A DNA stretch of 64,000 nt from a virus, in the UHGV virus genome UHGV-1351772; one strand, given 5' to 3'. The number at the start of each line of letters is the position of its first letter. Positions within the stretch are counted from its first letter, which is position 1. Shown here piece by piece: positions 3,764 through 57,486 of this stretch. Both the position numbers and the translations under genes were made by a program. The notes under the pieces are model-generated. The model did not search any database. It worked only from the letters and a program-made list of their open reading frames with translations, and was not told the DNA's origin.

Positions 3764-4264
3764 TCAAAACAGCTTAAGTGTTTGCGTTTGACCACCGCTG
3801 TACAGGTCGTAACGTTTCGCCACTTCCACCGCAGTGGGGGCGTCAACGCCAGCACCTAATGCACCCAGGGCATAGTGAGCACCTGAGCCTATCGCATACG
3901 GCGGCTCTACAAACACGTAACTGGCGTATTTGTTGTCTTTGCACTTCGAGGCGTCGATAACGCGTCCGTCTGTCAAAACAGCAAGTACGATAAAATCAAT
4001 CTGCTCGGGATACGTCGTTTCGAATCTAACTCCACCCCGTTCGATACCGCCGAAACGTTCAAGCGTGAGTTCTTGGCGCACGGATTGCAATGCGGCGACA
4101 TCACCTGCCAAACCGATCGCTTTCACGTCTTCACCCAAAAGCTTCCACGACGTACCCTCAGGCGGCGTGTGAATCTTACGGTATTGCGTGGCAGCACTAC
4201 GTTCTTCCACGGTGACTTGACCGTCGCAAGCTAACGTCTTTCCGTCGAAAACAATCGTGGTCAT
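3764..4264 (-). CDS. HslV/proteasome beta-subunit-like Ntn-hydrolase (putative threonine protease)
   Basis: N-terminus MTTIVFDGK...DGQ resembles HslV (Thr1 after Met removal) and has the GSG motif AIGSGAHYALGA; AGGAA RBS 7 nt upstream of ATG. Confidence 0.7.
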   Translation of the reverse strand: MTTIVFDGKTLACDGQVTVEERSAATQYRKIHTPPEGTSWKLLGEDVKAIGLAGDVAALQSVRQELTLERFGGIERGGVRFETTYPEQIDFIVLAVLTDGRVIDASKCKDNKYASYVFVEPPYAIGSGAHYALGALGAGVDAPTAVEVAKRYDLYSGGQTQTLKLF

Positions 4265-4626
4265 GACAGATTTCCTAACTCATTGCCGACCTCCTGGTCA
4301 GCAGCTACCATCGAATTCGTGCAACGCGTAACATGTTCACGAATCGCTCGAGCCAAACCTTCACGAACGGCTACCAGGAGACACTCTCGATAGCTCGGAT
4401 AATGCGCAATAGGGCTAGGGATGTGTTCCACGCAATAACCATCGTGAACTTCCACCACTACCGTGATGTAAATCTCGACGGGTTGGTAAATCCGCACGCT
4501 CTTGATCAAATCAAGTAACGCTGGCTCCGTGCATCCCCAGTCCTCCGGGGCTTTTAACAGCACTGCCAACTCATCGAGCCTGTACTGAACATCCAATTCC
4601 ACGTTAGTGGTGTTTTTGGAATCCAT
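4261..4626 (-). CDS. hypothetical protein; probable start at internal ATG 4626 (ORF extends to 4710)
   Basis: AGGAG 8 nt upstream of ATG at 4626; stop overlaps the HslV-like start as ATGA. Confidence 0.45.
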   Translation of the reverse strand: MDSKNTTNVELDVQYRLDELAVLLKAPEDWGCTEPALLDLIKSVRIYQPVEIYITVVVEVHDGYCVEHIPSPIAHYPSYRECLLVAVREGLARAIREHVTRCTNSMVAADQEVGNELGNLS

Positions 4627-5518
4627 ATTAAAATCTCCTGTCGTGGTCTGTGTCACACCAACAGGAAATCCTGTAAAAAAATAATTCAGCTGCGTACCGG
4701 CGTTTCTCAACGGGAGTACGCACCCCTCTCGTCTTTGCGAGCCGTCAAGCTAGAGGACATCACACTGCCAGCGCTACCTGGAGCAGGGTCATTCGACGCA
4801 ACGTCGTAATTCGCATTTTGGCCGCACCTCTGGGAGCGTATCCCACCGTCGGCTGCCCGCAGGTAAGTTCTACGGACCTTTCGCCAACGTCGCTCCCAGA
4901 GGCTGCCACGGTTCACTCGGATTTTCTCATGTGGTCCACGCGTCACTGATAGCGCGGGTTCCCCAACACTCGTAAGTCGGGGAACGGTACCGAGCACCTG
5001 AACTCTGGGGATTCCAAAAATCCCTCGGGGTAAGTACGATTCGCAAATCGATTTTCAAACCCCATAGTAAAACAAACTCCAGTGTTAGGCTGAACGTTTT
5101 GTTTTTCCCAGTACACGGCGAAATAAATTCCATGCACTCGAAAAAACAACCCCCAAACCAACACCCGGTCAGGGGGCTTCGAGCTCTGCTGAATCTTCGC
5201 AGACAGAAATCGTGTTTGAGCTGTGAGCAGTAAACTCCTGAACTCCGAAAAATCTTCGTGGTTGGATTTGTAAATCATCCCACGCAAATCCTCCGAACAT
5301 ACCATAGGGTTTTAACGTTCGAAAAAGGGGAATGGGTTTTACCCCCCTCGGTCAGGTGTTCAGGGTAGACCCCCTACCCGATCCCCCAGGTGGGGATTTT
5401 ACCCTGGTGAATTACCCCGGGTTCGATTTTCGGATTTTCTGGAAAATACCGCTCACCGATCCCTACCCCCTCAGGGGGGTCAGACCGAGATCAGATCTCA
5501 TAATAAGGATCGCGCGCG

Positions 5519-5614
5519 TTTTATATATATTTATATATAATATATATTATATATAATAATTATTATATTAATAAATATATTAATATATTTATTTAAATAA
5601 ATAATTAAATAATA
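5519..5614. repeat. 96-nt pure A/T low-complexity tract (possible DNA unwinding element)
   Basis: no G or C from 5519 to 5614; flanked on the left by cgcgcgcg (5511-5518). Confidence 0.8.
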
Positions 5615-5682
5615 CCTAAAGGTATTATTATTTTGATCCTAAAGGAATAATATATTTATAAATAAATATATTATACTATACG

Positions 5683-5700
5683 CGCGTGCGTACGCACGCG
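5683..5700. repeat. 18-bp perfect palindrome cgcgtgcgtacgcacgcg (alternating purine-pyrimidine)
   Basis: sequence equals its own reverse complement; sits at the right edge of the AT-rich tract. Confidence 0.85.
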
Positions 5701-5758
5701 TATAAGGAAGAGATCTTGAGATCAGATTTTTGAGAGAGTTAAAAATTTAAGATCGATC

Positions 5759-5779
5759 CGAGAGACTTAGTGTCTCTCG
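5759..5779. repeat. inverted repeat/hairpin cgagagac-ttagt-gtctctcg
   Basis: 8-bp perfect arms with 5-nt spacer. Confidence 0.7.
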
Positions 5780-5835
5780 AAGAGTATTAAAAAATTTAAA
5801 AGATCAAAAAACCAAAGCTAGAGAACTACTCAACC

Positions 5836-5862
5836 TGAATCTTCAGTGTGTGAAGATTCAGT
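5836..5862. repeat. inverted repeat/hairpin ctgaatcttca-gtgtg-tgaagattcag
   Basis: 11-bp perfect arms with 5-nt spacer. Confidence 0.75.
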
Positions 5863-6331
5863 AAGTTGATCAATCCAGCTGATCCGCTAGTACGCGAAGC
5901 GTGAATGTTTTTTTGATCGTCGCGGCGGCCGGTCCGCCGACCCGAGGGTGGGGTGGAACTGGTCGAGGGGAATGCCCCTCAGGCGCTCTCAATCGCGCTG
6001 TAACGAGTTAAACGGGGTTCTGGTACCCAAGTGTACCCCTTGAGGAGATTTTTGCGTCAAAATGCGTTCTAGAGCGTTTTACGATGGGGTGGGTTTTCGA
6101 CCCACTCAGGGATAGGGGTTGGCGTGACAGCTCGAACGACAAAATCGTGGTTTCATGGCGTTGAGTGAAAATAAATTCAAAACCCACAACCAAAAACACC
6201 CTCAAATTCTTCGTAGGAAGCTCTCTGACGAGATAAACGTGGGTAAGGGGTACGAACGTACCGCCTGGAAAGAAAAATGCGTTAGAATCGCTCTCAGCGC
6301 GTTTTTGATTTTTGGGCAAAAAAATAAAACG

Positions 6332-6351
6332 GGGGAGACTTCGGTCTCCCC
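6332..6351 (-). terminator. intrinsic terminator-like hairpin downstream of the 6362..7486 gene
   Basis: ggggagac-ttcg-gtctcccc (UUCG tetraloop) with A-run on plus strand upstream, i.e. T-run after the hairpin on the minus strand. Confidence 0.5.
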
Positions 6352-6361
6352 AGAATATTTT

Positions 6362-7486
6362 TTACAGAGTCGTCAGTTCTTTTGACGGATAGTACAGTTT
6401 CACATCGACCAAACTGTAACCGGTGGCGTAGAACACCTGATTTCCGACCGAAGCAATAAACCCTTCAGGGTCGATAACGTCAACCGAGAAATCGGAATCG
6501 AATAGCCAGGTTTCTTGTTCCCCTTCCCGTTCGAAAACGGCAGCGTAACGCCCGTATTCTGGGCCTCGGCGGAAACGAAACAGCGTTAATCCTGTCTCAC
6601 GTTCTAAGCCATAAATCACCCCATTTTCTTCGTAGATTTCAGCGCGATTACAGCGTGTAACCGTCAACAACGCAGGCCGTTGTGTCGGGATTGTTTTAAA
6701 CGGTGAAGGCCCATCGTATGTCGTTGAAACCCAATCACCGAGACTGTCTAACGCCAGTGCTCGATACGCGATAGGTGACTTGTAGTTACACAACCTGTTG
6801 CCCTCGGTGTACATCGTGTATTCGATGCGTAACGTAGTACCGATGATGTCGTTCAAACTCAGTTTGTAGTGCGCTAACTGGGCTTGTATACGACAGGACA
6901 GAATTGTACACAGGAAAGTGTGACCCTCTGTAGAACGGCACACAACTCCGTAATCGGTCACTGCCAGTAACGTGGCATCTGTTTTACGGACGGGTTCCAG
7001 GCGAAACACCTCATTTTCAGTTTCTACGAGGAACTGCGAAACCGCTTGGTTTCTGGATTTAGCTTTAATCGTATCGAACACATCACCCGCTTTTACGATT
7101 AACGGTTCTACCACGTTTACCTGAAACGGCAGCGGTTTAGTTGGGTATTGTCCCAACGTTGTAATCGTTACTGAGTTGAGTTCTGGGTCCGATGCGTCAG
7201 GATCACCAGACAACCAATACGTTAGCCATTTCGACAACGTCTGGGGAATGACGCGCGTGGTGTAAAACAGAATTTCGCCATGTAAACCTGCCTCTGCCAA
7301 TTCGCGTGCAAGAAACGAGTTGACCGCGTCGTAGGTACCGTTGCGCAAGATGTCCATACCCCCGACACGAACCAAATCACAAATTACGCCGTGTGGAAGA
7401 ACCCACATTTTGACGTTTTGATTTCGGTCGATGGTACCTTCGCGCAGCATTCTGTGCCAAACGGGTTTACGTAAGTAATTTCTCAT
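6362..7486 (-). CDS. hypothetical protein (374 aa)
   Basis: six-frame ORF; TAAAGGAG-type RBS context upstream of ATG. Confidence 0.6.
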   Translation of the reverse strand: MRNYLRKPVWHRMLREGTIDRNQNVKMWVLPHGVICDLVRVGGMDILRNGTYDAVNSFLARELAEAGLHGEILFYTTRVIPQTLSKWLTYWLSGDPDASDPELNSVTITTLGQYPTKPLPFQVNVVEPLIVKAGDVFDTIKAKSRNQAVSQFLVETENEVFRLEPVRKTDATLLAVTDYGVVCRSTEGHTFLCTILSCRIQAQLAHYKLSLNDIIGTTLRIEYTMYTEGNRLCNYKSPIAYRALALDSLGDWVSTTYDGPSPFKTIPTQRPALLTVTRCNRAEIYEENGVIYGLERETGLTLFRFRRGPEYGRYAAVFEREGEQETWLFDSDFSVDVIDPEGFIASVGNQVFYATGYSLVDVKLYYPSKELTTL

Positions 7487-7559
7487 TTTAAAACTCCTTT
7501 AGGTAGAATAAGACTCTCACTAGGATAATATCTATCCGTAATTATTTCGAGGTTCACTA

Positions 7560-8992: not shown

Positions 8993-9232
8993 TCAATGGG
9001 GCCCTGACATTACCACGAGGTGTATAGAGTAGACCATATTTAGCGCATAGGTAGCTGACGAACCTGCTACCATCAGACCAAATACTGCAAATGCCTGTAC
9101 ATACCGTGTTTTTCGTAGTGGGAAACCTTGCGAACGTCCGTATTGTTTTATCGCTTGGTAACTCTCGCGGATCATTTTATACGTCGCTATCCACGAAAAG
9201 AACACAAGTAAATAGTAAATTGGAGCCATCAC
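8993..9232 (-). CDS. small putative membrane protein (79 aa, two hydrophobic helices)
   Basis: ORF overlaps the terminase stop by ATGA; two hydrophobic segments. Confidence 0.45.
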   Translation of the reverse strand: MMAPIYYLLVFFSWIATYKMIRESYQAIKQYGRSQGFPLRKTRYVQAFAVFGLMVAGSSATYALNMVYSIHLVVMSGPH

Positions 9233-11337
9233 TTCATCCTCTGGCGTTGGATAAGCTCTCTTAAGCTTTCCATTGACGCCACGTTTTGTGTATCAGTGTT
9301 AAGTTGAGCAATGAGGGACTGGAGACGGTTACGAGCAGCCATTGCTTGAACCGGGTCTAATAACCCGTTTGTGGTTCGCACAAGACGCTCAATTTCCCCC
9401 ATCAGTTCCTGCTGTCGCGCCTCCTCCTCGAGTTGTAATTCCTCATCCACCCCTTCACGATTTTCGACTAAATTACGATTGCGCATCATCAATCGACTGT
9501 TGTTGATTTCATAATGCCCCAGGTTATTCCCAAGCAGCAATAACCACATCGCAAGTAACCAAGAAATCACGAGGTCGTCATGACCTGAAGCTTTGTGGTC
9601 AATACGACCATTTTTCTCCACGAGGTTAAGTATCTGGTCGATGAGTTCTCCGCAACGGAGTTTATCCGCGGATAAGCGCAACGCTGTGGTGAATACCTCA
9701 CCGTACAGTTTACGACGTTTTTCCTGGTCGGTTGAGAAACCGATATATTTACGGAATTTATTCCAGAACTTCTCAGCGTTACCAATAGGTCCACGGTGAT
9801 ACTCTTTGTAGAGATCGTCCGTACGTGAGTAGTCCTGAGTGATTCTCACAAATAAACGGCGATGTAAGTCCGTGACGCGAGACTGTAACTGCAGGATAAT
9901 TGCATCAGCCACAGACGAGCCAGTAGACCGTCGTTCCAGGATTAGTACCGTGTTAGGATATCGCACCATAAAATCCGCTAAATGAATCGCGAAAGAGATA
10001 ACGTTAGATTCGTTAACGGTTAATTTACCTGCATACTCTGCGGTCACAGAGTTAACAATAGACATGGCGATCGCGTCTCGACCCACCGCCTCAGAGGTAT
10101 CCAACCCGATGACGTGTCGGTCTTTGAGCTTCGTCATCATCTCCTCTTCGGTGTAGTACCAGTCGGTAACGTAGTTTTGTGGTGAAATATCTTTAAACAC
10201 AGCACGCATACGGGAAGCATTCATACGATCTGCATCTTCCGCTGAGAACGGCTTGTTCAGACCACCGGTAGTCCATTCACCCCCGAAGTCACGACGGATC
10301 TGGTCAGGGGTACCTTTGGCGTTCGCAATCATTGCCGCTAACTGCTCATCGCTGGTACCGAGCTGACGGTGGTTGTACTTCACGTAGAACATGATACGTG
10401 GGACTTCTGCCGTGGAGTTAGAACGGATGATATCAATGAGCTGTTTACGGGTTGGAATGTCGATATAGCGCTCATCCCACATAATCCCCGACGTCATCAG
10501 CTCGTACATGTACTTGCCTTCTTCCGTCGCTAAGTCACCAGGGGTTGTTGCGAATACGTTACCGTAAGGAACACCTTCCGCTTCGTTAATACGGCGAGCC
10601 GCTGTACCGGATGCCAGGGCTGCCGGTAGAATGTGGTGTACGTTTTTGGTAAAGGGGCCTTCGTCCGAGAACAGACGACCAGCGGTGAGTCCACGACCGA
10701 TACCGTTAGCAGATTCTGGGTCGTTTTGGCCGATACCCGTAATCAGTTTGTTACCCTGGGCTAAACACGCAAAAGTTTCGCGGTTATCTGGATCATCTGG
10801 ATGTGCTGGCCACAAGTAAGACGGTAGACCGTTACGTAGTTGCTTAAGTTTGTTAATGGTTTCTTCACGCAGTGCCGGTCCTTTTGTGATAAGAATCGTA
10901 CGAGAGTTTTCCAGAAACCGAATTAACCACAATAGTAATCCGCTCATCCCGACGGTTTTACCATGCTGACGGAGGAACTCGACGGCGGCGTCGATGTTGT
11001 TGAAGAAAATCCAATACATCGAAAAGTTACCACGGTCGATACGGAACGGCGACCCGTATTTCATACCGTCCGCAGGTACCCTGACGCACTCTCGAAACCA
11101 GTACCAAGGGTTTTCAGCACACTCGATGGCGATATACGCTTTCTGCTCGTCCGTTAGGTTTTCGTCAAAAGGATCGACCCCTTGCAGTAAAGGGTTATGT
11201 AAGGCGAGATGAATATAGTAGTGCTTTACACCCAGCTTTTTTAGGATATTTGCAAACTTGATAAACGATTTGTTTGTGGTTTTATCGTCAACAATAGCGC
11301 CTGGATAATAACGCCAGTCCGATTCACGTAGTATCAT
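9229..11337 (-). CDS. terL: terminase large subunit (T4 gp17-type ATPase/nuclease)
   Basis: Walker A-like RQHGKT; C-terminal nuclease motif ASGHDDLVISWLL matching the T4 gp17 GYHDDLVMS pattern; GAGGAG RBS. Confidence 0.85.
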   Translation of the reverse strand: MILRESDWRYYPGAIVDDKTTNKSFIKFANILKKLGVKHYYIHLALHNPLLQGVDPFDENLTDEQKAYIAIECAENPWYWFRECVRVPADGMKYGSPFRIDRGNFSMYWIFFNNIDAAVEFLRQHGKTVGMSGLLLWLIRFLENSRTILITKGPALREETINKLKQLRNGLPSYLWPAHPDDPDNRETFACLAQGNKLITGIGQNDPESANGIGRGLTAGRLFSDEGPFTKNVHHILPAALASGTAARRINEAEGVPYGNVFATTPGDLATEEGKYMYELMTSGIMWDERYIDIPTRKQLIDIIRSNSTAEVPRIMFYVKYNHRQLGTSDEQLAAMIANAKGTPDQIRRDFGGEWTTGGLNKPFSAEDADRMNASRMRAVFKDISPQNYVTDWYYTEEEMMTKLKDRHVIGLDTSEAVGRDAIAMSIVNSVTAEYAGKLTVNESNVISFAIHLADFMVRYPNTVLILERRSTGSSVADAIILQLQSRVTDLHRRLFVRITQDYSRTDDLYKEYHRGPIGNAEKFWNKFRKYIGFSTDQEKRRKLYGEVFTTALRLSADKLRCGELIDQILNLVEKNGRIDHKASGHDDLVISWLLAMWLLLLGNNLGHYEINNSRLMMRNRNLVENREGVDEELQLEEEARQQELMGEIERLVRTTNGLLDPVQAMAARNRLQSLIAQLNTDTQNVASMESLRELIQRQRMK

Positions 11338-16524: not shown

Positions 16525-18582
16525 ATGAGTTTTATTCCACGAAACGGCGCGCCATTGAATAACAAGCAAGGGTGGCAGGATAACTCTGTCCCTGAGCTTG
16601 TCCGGACCCCCACGGGTGATCCGATTCATAAGCCGCTGATCTTCACCTTTGCATCACGCGGGGTAGACGACGAGGCGTTCCCGTTATCCGGGGATAATGC
16701 ATTGTCTCTGCTTGGTCGTGATTTGTTCGACCTGCGTGGCGATTACGCGACGTTCAACACACCCTTCCAGGCGATGTTTAATGCCAATGGTAACGAGTGT
16801 ATGTATCAGCGTCTGGTACCGGAAGATGCGAAAGTCGCAGCTGTCCGTCTGGTGGCTGACGTCCTCGAAACCAAAGTTCCTTCATACGAGCGTGTGAACG
16901 GCATTATCCAGTATGAAACTAACGGTAAGCCGAAGAAGAAAGCGGACGTTGATGGCTTGAAAGTGGTTTTCCGTCTGCAAGTTGTCGAAGATGTAAGCAC
17001 CCTGAAAAAAGGTGTGGTTACTGAAGGGACAATGACCGACGAAACTACCCAGGCGAAATCAAAGCTCTATCCGATCTTCGACATTAAAGGCCCGTACGCG
17101 GGTGCTGATGTCAACGGTTTCGGTTTTAAACTGGTTCCGCTGAACGAAAAATCCAGCCCATCTATCGCGTCTGCTTATCAGACCAACGTAGGTGGACGTA
17201 TGTACGCACTGCAATGGTTTGAAACCTTAGCAGGGGTTACATCGCCGGTAATTTGGAAGACCCTTAAAGGTCTTAGCAGCATCAATGTTAGCTTCAAGCC
17301 CGATGCATACTATCAGCCGATGGCTACTCAACTGGACTTCGAAGTCGTTGTTCCAGATGCCTATCGTCAGACGATGCCAGACATCGGTGGTCTGCCGGAC
17401 TACGGTCCTTTCGAAGAGTTCTACATTTACCGTGAAAACCTGGAAACTGTTCTGAAACTGGCACAGTCTAAAATTCAGAATGCGAAACCAGCGATCACCG
17501 ATCCGTATATGGTCGATATCTTCGGCGGCCTGGATTTAACCGGTCAAATGTACGATGGTCTGCAAGTTAGCCCATCTGATGAAGTGGGTAAAGTTGTCTT
17601 TTCTGCTTCTAACATTCACTATCTGCAGGGCGGTAGTGACGGGACGATGGGTAATGATGCTTACGACAAACTCGTGCGTCGTGAGATGAGTCAGTTCCCG
17701 GACGGCGGTAAAGTCCGTTACGATAACGAACTGAAATATTCGTTAGGCTGCTTCTGGGACTCCGGTTTTAGCATGGATACCAAGAAAGTGCTGACCAATT
17801 TCATTGGTCGTTCTCGTAACACGTTCTTGACACTCTGTACTCACGTTTATAACGAAGGTCGTAATGACTTACAAACCGAAGAGAACGTGAAGACAGCGCT
17901 GATCGAAATGATTACGTCCGTGCCTGAGTCGTCCTATTACGGTACCCCGGCGTGCCGTGGGATGATTACTGGCCAGTCTGCTTTCATCCGTAACTCGAGC
18001 TACAAGAAACCGGTTCCGATGTGTTATAGCATTGCGAACTTCTTCTCGAAGTATCTCGGTTCCGGTGAAGGACGTGCAAAACCGGCGTATCGTTTCAGCC
18101 GTGGTGAAGAGACGATCATCGAAGATCTGTACGATTTGAGTATGCCGTGGAAAGGTAACGAGATTTACGCGTCCGACTGGGATGTGTCCCTGGTTACCGC
18201 ACGTTCCCGCGACTACTATCGTTTGTTCATCCCAGCTATCCAGTCCATCTATAGCGAAGAACGTTCAGTGCTGAACAATGCACTGTTTAACTTTATCCTG
18301 ACTTACGTTTATCGTGTCAGCGATCAGGTTTGGGCAGATATGTCCGGTGAAAGCCGTATGACGGACGACGAACGCGCGAAAATGATTGAAAACAAAATCA
18401 CCGAGCGTTTGGAAGGTCGCCTGGATAATATTGCCGACATTACCCCGAGTGCGTATATGACAGCGGACGATAAAGCCAATGGCTACTCTATCACGCTGGA
18501 CATTAAAGCTGAAGGCGGTGTACTGTTGTCGCAGTTCAACACGACGATCAAAGTTTATCGTCGCAACAGTACGGAGGTCTAA
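16525..18582 (+). CDS. abundant virion structural protein candidate (tail sheath-like or capsid; 685 aa)
   Basis: strongly biased, highly-expressed-type codon usage; GGAGA RBS; immediately followed by a 291-aa gene, as in sheath/tube pairs. Confidence 0.6.
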   Translation: MSFIPRNGAPLNNKQGWQDNSVPELVRTPTGDPIHKPLIFTFASRGVDDEAFPLSGDNALSLLGRDLFDLRGDYATFNTPFQAMFNANGNECMYQRLVPEDAKVAAVRLVADVLETKVPSYERVNGIIQYETNGKPKKKADVDGLKVVFRLQVVEDVSTLKKGVVTEGTMTDETTQAKSKLYPIFDIKGPYAGADVNGFGFKLVPLNEKSSPSIASAYQTNVGGRMYALQWFETLAGVTSPVIWKTLKGLSSINVSFKPDAYYQPMATQLDFEVVVPDAYRQTMPDIGGLPDYGPFEEFYIYRENLETVLKLAQSKIQNAKPAITDPYMVDIFGGLDLTGQMYDGLQVSPSDEVGKVVFSASNIHYLQGGSDGTMGNDAYDKLVRREMSQFPDGGKVRYDNELKYSLGCFWDSGFSMDTKKVLTNFIGRSRNTFLTLCTHVYNEGRNDLQTEENVKTALIEMITSVPESSYYGTPACRGMITGQSAFIRNSSYKKPVPMCYSIANFFSKYLGSGEGRAKPAYRFSRGEETIIEDLYDLSMPWKGNEIYASDWDVSLVTARSRDYYRLFIPAIQSIYSEERSVLNNALFNFILTYVYRVSDQVWADMSGESRMTDDERAKMIENKITERLEGRLDNIADITPSAYMTADDKANGYSITLDIKAEGGVLLSQFNTTIKVYRRNSTEV

Positions 18583-56697: not shown

Positions 56698-57486
56698 ATG
56701 AATGTAAATCCACTTGCAGCGTTATCTAGCTTCGCCGCTAAAGCGTCTGCAATCTTACCGAAAGGGTTTAGTGGCCCTCAACAAGAGATTGCATTAACCA
56801 CTTATGACGAGATGTCGGACGTTTCCAAGTGGATGCAACAAGAAAAATTCCTACACTTTGCGGGAATGTTGGTTATCGTTCCACCTGGGTTTAATACCTA
56901 CGTGATGGATCACTTGAACCGCTTAGAATCTGTATGGAGTTCACTACAAAACATCTATACGGGTATTCTGCTACCGGTCGATAAACAACTTTCGGCCCTT
57001 ACACATGATGTGGGGGTACTGTCATTACCGATTGGTTTCCGTTACAAAAACGTTAATTTACCGTTACGTAATGTTAACCCGAAAGACCTGGTTAACTTAT
57101 TAGCGAAATCGTACACTAATAACGTTATTGACCAGCGACCAATTGAGAAGACGTACCACAGCGCGTCTGAGATTGACGTTGCGTTCAATCGTGCTAAAGC
57201 CCTGAACGTTGAAATTACGAAACGTTTACGGACGAATATCGACAAGTCAATCGAGTCCATTCGCACTACGTCAGAAATCTTGTCCGAACAAAACATTCAT
57301 CCGAATGTAGCAAAAGAACTGACGATGATGTTAGATTTTGCATCCGATTGGGTGGAGCTGTTTGGTCTGTTCATGAAACAGGTTAACGAGTTAATCGAAT
57401 GCCTGAACGTTACTGCCGAACGCTTAAAAGCGCTTAAGGCAAACAAAAATAAAAAAGTAAAGTTACCCCTAGACCGTGTGGTCTAG
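56698..57486 (+). CDS. hypothetical protein (262 aa) on plus strand
   Basis: ORF with GAGG RBS; stop lies inside a 13-bp hairpin terminator. Confidence 0.5.
   Translation: MNVNPLAALSSFAAKASAILPKGFSGPQQEIALTTYDEMSDVSKWMQQEKFLHFAGMLVIVPPGFNTYVMDHLNRLESVWSSLQNIYTGILLPVDKQLSALTHDVGVLSLPIGFRYKNVNLPLRNVNPKDLVNLLAKSYTNNVIDQRPIEKTYHSASEIDVAFNRAKALNVEITKRLRTNIDKSIESIRTTSEILSEQNIHPNVAKELTMMLDFASDWVELFGLFMKQVNELIECLNVTAERLKALKANKNKKVKLPLDRVV

Follow-up and report, generated by a model that had tools for sequence, protein, structure and literature searches.

The 64,000-nucleotide stretch of virus genome UHGV-1351772 analysed here (the window) carries, around positions 5380 to 5918, a single-copy, non-coding, cis-acting DNA element that is conserved throughout its clade of jumbo phages and whose core melts more easily, and is more prone to form structure, than any other DNA of the genome. 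Fourteen GATC tetramers are gathered there around a palindromic core of pure A/T, and the lineages that carry the element also encode a homologue of the adenine methylase Dam. The reading that we tentatively favour, as a possibility well short of an assignment, is that the locus may be a replication origin tuned by Dam methylation.

The window derives from a SPN3US/Asesino-like jumbo phage of the nucleus-forming family Chimalliviridae. It shares ~75% nucleotide identity with Seoulvirus (SPN3US) and Erskinevirus (Asesino, phiEaH2) over conserved structural genes, and it encodes a phiKZ-type vertex protein, DUF7193 and a T4-type large terminase (TerL; PHROG 2) at 9229-11337; IMG/VR holds near-identical contigs. 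Seoul-like phages encode chimallin, which places them in Chimalliviridae, and they are over-represented as persistent phages in bacterial assemblies (PMC9365700). The compartment of the nucleus-forming family is reported to keep out host defence factors.

GATC clustering and base composition at the locus

The original prediction had counted about 14 GATC tetramers in this interval, and the recount agrees exactly. Within 539 bp (5380-5918) sites start at 5380, 5458, 5489, 5494, 5508, 5635, 5712, 5720, 5751, 5755, 5802, 5868, 5881 and 5915; five precede the AT tract, one falls within it and eight follow it. Across the window there are 194 GATC, or 3.03 per kb, where base composition predicts ~3.9 per kb (~247), and the density is ~3.0 per kb in coding and non-coding DNA alike, so the claim that GATC is sporadic elsewhere holds for the window. 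A sliding-window count found 7 sites in the runner-up 540-bp stretch as against 14 at the locus. The Poisson probability of at least 14 sites is 1e-9 (lambda 1.53), or ~1e-7 after multiplication by the number of windows, and uniform re-placement of the 194 sites over 2000 rounds gave a maximum count of 12 and never 14. With the AT tract set aside, GATC is the top-enriched strand-symmetrised 4-mer of the flanks (13 observed vs 1.28 expected). Because the surroundings of the 14 sites have nothing in common beyond GATC, which is the whole of their consensus, the repeated unit is the Dam target itself and not a longer iteron. A second GATC-rich spot at 25.0-25.7 kb was rejected, being coding sequence with dispersed sites.

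The AT-only tract and the palindromes reported at the locus proved equally real. Two runs of pure A/T occupy 5519-5614 (96 nt) and 5646-5675 (30 nt), where the next AT-only run in the window measures 17 nt, and the lowest-GC 150-bp window lies at the locus (6% vs 28.7% for the runner-up). The absence of a credible open reading frame (ORF) was also borne out: the ORFs listed in 4261-6385 show no protein conservation past the nearest relative, and even there they have low identity or broken frames, the flanking genes being 89-98% identical. The locus thus sits within a ~2.1-kb stretch, 4265-6361, that is without conserved protein coding.

Architecture of the element

The element is best described from its left edge to its right. 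The left boundary motif, GAGATCAGATCTC-ATAATAAGGATC-GCGCGCGT (5487..5519), places three GATC in 23 bp; its component motifs CCTTATTA and TTATTANGAGA have no other intergenic occurrence in the window or in SPN3US, and on the minus strand it reads GATCCTTATTATGAGATC, a match to the late-promoter motif in the window lineage only. AT-only tract I (5519..5614, 96 nt) follows, contains a perfect 26-nt AT palindrome at 5531-5556 and is a candidate DNA-unwinding or cruciform core. It runs into the central palindrome AATAATACCT-AA-AGGTATTATT (5608..5629) and then into GATCCTAAAGGAAT (5635..5648), the counterpart of a motif, AAAGATCC(C)TGNAGGA, found in all other lineages. Beyond AT-only tract II (5646..5675, 30 nt) lies a strictly alternating purine-pyrimidine CG/TG block of 25 nt, ACGCGCGTGCGTACGCACGCGTATA (5680..5704), with the perfect 18-bp palindrome CGCGTGCGTACGCACGCG inside it (5683-5700). 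The right boundary motif, CGCGTATAAGGAA-GAGATC-TT-GAGATC (5697..5725), carries ATAAGGA in the same direct orientation as at the left and then a GATC doublet. Read outward from the AT tract, both edges present (CG)n, ~10 nt and GAGATC-N-GATC, with ATAAGGA direct on both sides, and GATC sites group around the core as three within 23 bp at the left and four within 47 bp at the right.

To the right of this core the sequence is a succession of small palindromes. The perfect palindrome H1, CGAGAGAC-TTAGT-GTCTCTCG with 8-bp arms, occupies 5759..5779, and a second, H2, CTGAATCTTCA-GTGTG-TGAAGATTCAG, occupies 5835..5861. A plus-strand mini-hairpin, TACGCGAAGCGTG (5891..5903), has a C-GNA-G loop and in the window lineage is followed by seven T; conserved TGATCGTCGCGGCGG and a GC-rich hairpin at 5919-5941 close the element (5914..5941). 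Folded as single-stranded DNA, the interval 5484-5712 reaches -39.5 kcal/mol with a z of -4.85 against shuffles, and its Seoulvirus homologue has a z of -4.66.

Conservation across phage lineages

The same modules recur in the same order: a GATC doublet and then TAATAAGGATCNCGCG, the AT tract, alternating CG, GATC with palindromes, and a closing TGATCG(T/G)CG. This order is kept in the window lineage (L003, L005), Seoulvirus (SPN3US, MET_P1_082_240, SPAsTU, pEa_SNUABM_29), Erskinevirus (Asesino, phiEaH2), Machinavirus (Huxley), Wellingtonvirus, ChrisDB, Caitlin and the metagenomic contigs L014, L057/L061 and L063. The architecture is thus seen in more than 12 sequences from at least seven lineages, whose Dam proteins are just 53-70% identical to SPN3US Dam.

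Within this framework some parts are fixed in sequence and others only in form. TAATAAGGATCNCGCG is identical in 11 of 11 aligned sequences, and variants of it occur farther out, in Wellington and ChrisDB/Caitlin. Almost every lineage has TGATCG(T/G)C, with CGATCG in SNU29 and AGATCG in ChrisDB. The near-universal GATC sites are AAAGATCC(C)TGNAGGA, [TCA]GATCG(T/G)C and, in most lineages, TAATAAGGATC. The central palindrome is replaced elsewhere by ATATCCCTACGGGATAT or AATATCTAAAGATATT; both arms change and the palindrome is kept, the arm pairs being AATACCT/AGGTATT, ATCCC/GGGAT and AATATCT/AGATATT. The alternating CG block likewise retains its alternation and differs in sequence among lineages, and the H1 position holds a different perfect palindrome in other lineages. 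Between the window and L003, which are 99% identical in the neighbouring protein, the H1 loop is exactly inverted (TTAGT vs ACTAA), which is consistent with hairpin-mediated template switching in vivo. H2 has a stem of 10-11 bp with five stem sequences across lineages. In the window, Seoulvirus and Erskinevirus its loop is GTGTG, GAGAG or GAGA, and its stems are perfectly Watson-Crick paired with no G-T pairs, which points to selection on a DNA palindrome and not on an RNA, the neighbouring RNA being rich in G-U. The mini-hairpin loop is GAA or GTA in most lineages and CAA, AAA or CTA in outlying ones.

Two features vary in quantity. The AT tract ranges from 63 to 180 bp among lineages and is 45 nt shorter in L003, although that genome is 99% related to the window. 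The number of GATC sites is 13-14 in the window lineage, 8-11 in Seoulvirus and Erskinevirus, 7 in Wellington and 3-4 in ChrisDB and Caitlin; it exceeds expectation in all lineages, the poorest having 3-4 in 620 nt vs ~1.3 expected. Because GATC number varies in this way on the same scaffold, it is the core of AT tract, CG blocks and palindromes, and not GATC density, that is the invariant feature.

The AT tract is also a systematic break point of assembly. IMG/VR contigs L004/L055, L006 and L019 end inside it or at its edge, and both ends of contig 3300045988_113438 meet there; the purity of the tract explains why assemblies of these genomes break at the locus. Such breaks are the expected assembly failure of AT-only DNA, and the contig ends were rejected as genome termini.

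An extended-motif search of species-representative genomes returned one match, a metagenome-derived contig. The string TAATAAGGATCGCGCG with further alternating CG also appears in unrelated phage contigs (L013/L022/L028, L018/L026 and L029). In L029 it is non-coding and follows directly on a gene that, by sequence reading only, is taken as the terminase of a T7-like genome, and in L018/L026 it stands beside short direct repeats. These occurrences of the invariant 16-mer were not counted as copies of the element: AT tract and GATC cluster are absent, and the number of hits is compatible with chance.

Uniqueness of the element and co-occurrence with a phage Dam homologue

A complete relative allowed the locus to be placed in a whole-genome context. 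The SPN3US genome (240,413 bp, assembled from the five pieces L031-L035) is depleted in GATC, with 489 observed vs 937 expected (0.52), although it encodes Dam. Its densest 540-bp GATC stretch is nevertheless the locus, which spans the record junction and holds 10 sites vs 6 in the runner-up. In that genome the locus also ranks first for length of AT-only run, for low GC over 150 bp and for length of GC-rich alternating purine-pyrimidine run, and it lies in the largest non-coding gap (1185 + 531 = 1716 bp). None of its component motifs has a second intergenic site in SPN3US or in the window, and the element is single-copy. The window lineage is less GATC-depleted than SPN3US (194 observed vs ~247 estimated). 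In phiKZ, the first 40 kb, around TerL, hold no AT-only tract and show no GATC depletion (4.6 per kb), so there is no syntenic counterpart, at least in that region.

The enzyme that could mark these sites is encoded by the phages themselves. SPN3US gp161 is a D12-class N6-adenine methyltransferase (PF02086, E 2.5e-52). Among solved structures it is closest, over the full length, to E. coli Dam (2g1p, 1.4e-54) and DpnM, followed by T4 Dam. E. coli Dam, DpnM and T4 Dam all methylate GATC. Orthologues of gp161 are syntenic near 98 kb in Seoulvirus, Erskinevirus, Wellingtonvirus, Machinavirus and ChrisDB/Caitlin (the last two via database records). For the window lineage the gene, which lies outside the 64-kb window, is represented on related contigs L070-L073 at 67-68% identity; the homologue is full-length in each lineage checked. 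On the strand of the SPN3US Dam gene, an early-type promoter at 94242 lies ~2.6 kb upstream of it, which hints that the gene may be expressed early rather than late. GATC sites and an enzyme probably able to mark them thus co-occur throughout, with both the GATC specificity of the enzyme and methylation of the locus predicted from sequence.

Transcription signals at the locus

The promoter classes used here were derived in this analysis and are supported by analogy with published work on phiKZ and AR9. An early-type weight matrix built from 14 SPN3US sites has the consensus AAAnnTTTCAGATA(G/T)ATATTA(C/T)CTnnGTGA, which matches the virion RNA polymerase class of phiKZ-like phages, a family reported to be independent of host RNA polymerase (PMC5312081). 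Its matches in the window (22331, 7536, 52633, 61749 and 2028, all on the minus strand) lie upstream of genes, and none scoring at least 12 bits falls within 4264-6362. A cluster of early promoters at the locus was therefore rejected, as the locus holds none of the five matches. A late-type motif, T(A/T)NTATG(A), precedes structural genes by 20-49 nt, counted to the start codon, both in the window (plus-strand genes 16525-18582 and 56698-57486) and in SPN3US, and agrees with the TATG late promoters reported for phiKZ (PMC5312081).

At the left edge of the AT tract the minus-strand sequence TTATTATG-AGATC (5505-5493) fits the late motif in the window lineage only, other lineages having TATTAAG or TATTACG. 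Farther left, a minus-strand hairpin with a T run at ~5140-5185 is weak in the window itself and shows compensatory changes in relatives; that this terminator-like hairpin is kept suggests that some minus-strand transcript starts to its right, in or near the locus. The idea that the central palindrome is a pair of back-to-back promoters was discarded, for its likeness to the early core is seen in two lineages and not in the ATCCCTACGGGAT lineages.

A possible Dam-tuned replication origin as the favoured model

The original prediction held that the locus might be a Dam- and SeqA-regulated replication origin or a methylation-controlled packaging or regulatory site. This is supported in part: the cluster is non-random, non-coding and single-copy, is conserved across genera and has the highest GATC density of the whole genome in a complete relative, and its link to methylation is strengthened by the phage Dam homologue in every lineage that has it. 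The anatomy, statistical excess, conservation, uniqueness, folding propensity and co-occurrence with Dam are established, and every functional step of the model below is inferred from sequence.

In this model the 100% A/T palindromic core (5519-5675) would open, or extrude a cruciform, under negative supercoiling. The opening would be confined by alternating CG to either side of it, in the role of clamps or of Z-prone boundaries that respond to supercoiling, and the invariant boundary motifs TAATAAGGATCNCGCG, AAAGATCCTGNAGGA and TGATCGNCG would be candidate binding sites of a phage protein. Methylation by the phage Dam of GATC in and around these boundary motifs could then alter protein binding or duplex stability according to whether the sites are fully methylated, hemimethylated or unmethylated, and so time the firing or shut-off of the origin, for example at a switch from origin-dependent to recombination-dependent replication. 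The perfect palindromes on the right may fold as hairpins once single-stranded and possibly serve as priming or loading signals.

Several lines of evidence argue for this model. The GATC excess comes with a clade-wide architecture in which boundary motifs are invariant and palindromes are maintained through compensatory change. An AT tract of such variable length between fixed flanks is what would be expected if only easy melting matters. The folding scores of the core in the window and in Seoulvirus point in the same direction, and the inverted H1 loop is consistent with palindromes that fold in vivo. In SPN3US the locus combines the highest GATC density, the lowest GC, the longest AT-only run and the largest non-coding gap of a genome that is otherwise GATC-depleted. 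To these can be added the GC clamps, the Dam homologue in all lineages, its apparently early expression, the early-expressed DNA-metabolism neighbours and the fact that the locus motifs are not a recurrent promoter type.

Other observations weigh against an origin. No DnaA box (TTATCCACA) was found at up to one mismatch on either strand of 4264-6362, and the IHF consensus was not found at the locus. Iterons are absent, the only repeat families at the locus being AT-rich ones and GATC, and just three dispersed matches resembling the oriC 13-mer (consensus from PMC9948254) occur, with 2 mismatches each, on the minus strand at 5805, 5754 and 5715. Cumulative GC skew in the window and in SPN3US follows gene strand and never regains its starting value; as an origin locator it was dismissed, since it reports gene orientation only and is uninformative. 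No initiator gene was found among the neighbours of the locus, which are ligase-like or proteins of unknown function, and it is not obvious why a lytic phage would need control of the sequestration type. Given that GATC number runs from 3-4 to 14 between lineages, a high density cannot be essential to the core function. Finally, TerL lies just 3.3 kb away, and the precedent of P1 packaging fits two-sided GATC and a phage Dam at least equally well.

The likely reader of the sites also differs from that originally supposed. Control by host SeqA or DnaA is doubtful in chimallin-encoding, nucleus-forming phages: with replication proceeding inside the chimallin shell, these host proteins are unlikely readers, and any reading of methylation would more likely fall to a phage protein or to a physical effect of N6-methyladenine on duplex stability. 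One variant would make the locus an oriC-like, methylation-timed origin for low-copy, host-synchronous replication of a nominally virulent phage during persistent infection. Readers of the GATC array would be the phage Dam and perhaps the Dam and SeqA of the host, at times when no mature phage nucleus encloses the genome. We consider this variant highly improbable.

Comparison with known origins helps to delimit the favoured model. E. coli oriC and P1 oriR are GATC-dense, have an AT-rich unwinding region and are gated by methylation state. The locus resembles them as a single site in which GATC lies several-fold above background (14 vs 1.5 expected, and the genome-wide maximum in SPN3US) beside a candidate AT-rich unwinding region, and at which methylation state could likewise gate function. 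It differs in lacking DnaA boxes, tandem 13-mers and iterons, in having an AT tract that is pure, palindromic and CG-bracketed, and in that the methylase is phage-encoded and the phage nucleus probably keeps out SeqA and DnaA, which are host proteins. T4 oriF and oriG consist of a promoter and a downstream unwinding element and are primed by an R-loop. Here, too, a phage with its own replisome has a candidate promoter abutting an easily melted tract and an early replication-related gene nearby. The promoter match, however, is lineage-specific, and T4 origins have neither GATC cluster nor CG clamps; no T4-type promoter was found reading into the unwinding element, as the edge matches face outward from the AT tract and early-type promoters are absent from the locus. 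Herpesvirus oriS and oriL have an AT-rich palindrome centre that is prone to form hairpins or cruciforms and is flanked by recognition sequences. The locus likewise joins an AT-rich palindromic centre, whose folding was computed, to conserved flanks, but these viruses belong to an unrelated realm, with no homologous initiator and no role for methylation, and the resemblance is one of mechanism and not of membership.

Alternative explanations

An origin and a P1-like packaging (pac) site are the two best readings of the locus. On the pac reading, which we regard as rather unlikely, a recognition protein and the T4-type large terminase would bind GATC motifs flanking a bendable AT core and make the first headful cut, with phage Dam methylation deciding which copies of a concatemer may be cut. 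P1 pac, a 161-bp site that IHF and HU bend, has seven GATC hexamers in two groups around the cleavage region; hemimethylated DNA is bound, and more methylation is required before it is cleaved (PMC10028697). The two GATC groups around the core, of which the innermost sites are conserved in most lineages, the Dam-family methylase of the phage's own, the single copy and the 3.3-kb distance from TerL in all lineages checked for synteny would all fit such a site, as would the headful packaging presumed for the family (PMC5694885; PMC6256631). The details agree less well. P1-type hexamers, TGATC(A/G), account for only 2 of the 14 sites (TGATCA at 5867 and TGATCG at 5914), and the spacing of the two GATC groups varies about threefold between lineages. 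The P1 hexamers lie inside pacA and need PacA/PacB with host IHF and HU, whereas the locus is non-coding, ~540 bp long and built on a 100% AT palindromic core of variable length in a phage that would replicate and package in or on a nucleus, where host IHF and HU may be missing. The site is downstream of the terminase gene rather than inside or upstream of it, with ligase-like and virion-protein genes between, and no small terminase or PacA/PacB-like recogniser was found among the neighbours. The Dam gene of SPN3US stands behind an early-type promoter, unlike P1 dmt, which is expressed late. Nor do sequence records that end at the locus mark physical ends: the AT tract marks the start or end of the SPN3US, EC001, JN03 and Asesino records, but in the SPFM records the locus falls internally, at arbitrary positions. 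Base 1 of Erwinia phage records was set by alignment to the family (PMC6256631). Since the locus lacks defining features of both the origin and the pac families, we file it under neither and treat both as working models.

Two further readings dispense with replication and packaging. The AT-tract edges could carry outward promoters (minus near 5499, plus near 5708) for short non-coding transcripts, with GATC over the starts making them methylation-responsive as in IS10 pIN or Mu mom. We hold this Dam-sensitive control region to be unlikely. The late-motif match of the left boundary in the window lineage, the terminator-like hairpin kept by compensatory change at ~5140-5185, the plus-strand hairpin with seven T at 5891-5912 in the window lineage and the shared outward order of CGCG, ~10 nt and GAGATC-N-GATC at both edges speak for it. 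Yet the key T of TATG is A or C in other lineages in a motif that is otherwise invariant, the right edge fits none of the derived promoter classes, no early-type promoter reaches the threshold anywhere in 4264-6362, and the stretch from the minus-strand start to the terminator is poorly conserved. The motifs are moreover single-copy in the genome and far better conserved than ordinary phage promoters, and a pure AT tract of 63-180 bp is left without a reason. Known Dam-sensitive promoters (IS10 pIN, Mu mom, pap, agn43) share GATC over a candidate transcription start, but they have 1-3 GATC in a host sigma-70 promoter or regulator site and not up to 14 over 540 bp around an AT-only tract. More doubtful still is a purely structural or recombinogenic palindrome (a supercoil sink, a hotspot for an SbcCD-like nuclease or an ATAAGGA-flanked insertion relic) at which GATC is incidental and the high count of the window lineage reflects drift around a few conserved motifs that happen to contain it. 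The range of GATC counts on one scaffold, from 3-4 in ChrisDB and Caitlin to 14 in the window lineage, the direct ATAAGGA repeat that brackets the CG-AT-CG unit, the instability of AT-tract length even between 99%-related genomes and the presence in the phage of SbcD-like and SMC-domain (putative SbcC/Rad50-type) proteins are in keeping with it. Against this, GATC is depleted in the rest of SPN3US and above expectation at the locus in every lineage, several GATC positions are kept where the flanks have diverged past alignment, and invariant motifs of 18 nt imply sequence-specific recognition.

Genomic neighbourhood and an adjoining RNA candidate

On its left the locus is followed by a minus-strand HslV-like gene (3764-4264) and a tRNA-Trp gene, and on its right by a minus-strand gene for a 374-aa protein with a ligase-like fold (6362-7486), which has the early-type promoter at 7536 and a strong terminator at its 3' side (6351-6332). 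In all lineages examined for synteny the locus lies 3.3 kb downstream of TerL, and the intervening genes are ligase-like and virion-protein genes. The protein of 6362-7486 (clusters P0001 and P0002) has a 99% identical partial counterpart from a Shigella flexneri assembly, and cluster P0001 comprises 302 member sequences, mostly from public sequencing-run assemblies, which fits the reported persistence of Seoul-like jumbo phages in isolates. Between the element and the terminator at 6332-6351, the interval 5930-6330 contains more conserved non-coding blocks, among them GGAACCCAAGTGTAC(N)GGGT at ~6020-6040 and GCGTTCTAGAGCGTTTT at ~6065-6081, both common to Seoulvirus, L014 and Huxley; they could represent another RNA or binding region.

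Directly left of the locus, between it and the HslV-like and tRNA genes, all lineages carry a candidate structured RNA of ~390 nt on the minus strand (~5063 to 4676), with conserved blocks reaching ~5160. It adjoins the phage tRNA genes, is preceded by a conserved late-type TA(G/T/C)TATG at 5069-5063 and ends in a T run. For its 3' half an RNAalifold consensus over nine lineages gave 46 pairs, and compensatory changes occur in 18. In that alignment 94.9% of cells are paired, vs 35-46% when partners are slid by 1-3 columns, and the slid controls have 3-6 compensatory pairs vs 18; none of 500 shuffles reached the observed values. The many G-U pairs fix the strand as minus. An Rfam search gave the tRNA as its sole hit at E<=1, and relaxing the cut-off to E<=10 added no credible one, so that the candidate matches no Rfam family and the locus was not assigned to a known RNA family. 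A 22-nt invariant string, CGGCTCGNNAAGACGAGAGGGG, retrieves the RNA candidate from 15 viral contigs of the clade.

Implications for nucleus-forming phages

The literature searched, in which subscription journals may have been missed, defines no origin, pac site or cis-acting DNA element for Chimalliviridae, and within that partial coverage it holds no description of this locus. A single, clade-wide element accompanied by a phage Dam offers a concrete, easily recognised target for mutation, with which to ask where these phages begin to replicate or package their DNA, and a defined origin or pac site would help the development of jumbo-phage vectors and transducing particles. Should the persistence-origin variant prove true, Chimalliviridae would gain a first defined cis-acting element of replication control, and the locus would give mechanistic access to persistence. 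More broadly, the element makes it possible to ask whether adenine methylation is a timing signal inside a compartment that excludes host factors, and whether it contributes to the persistent infections of Seoul-like phages.

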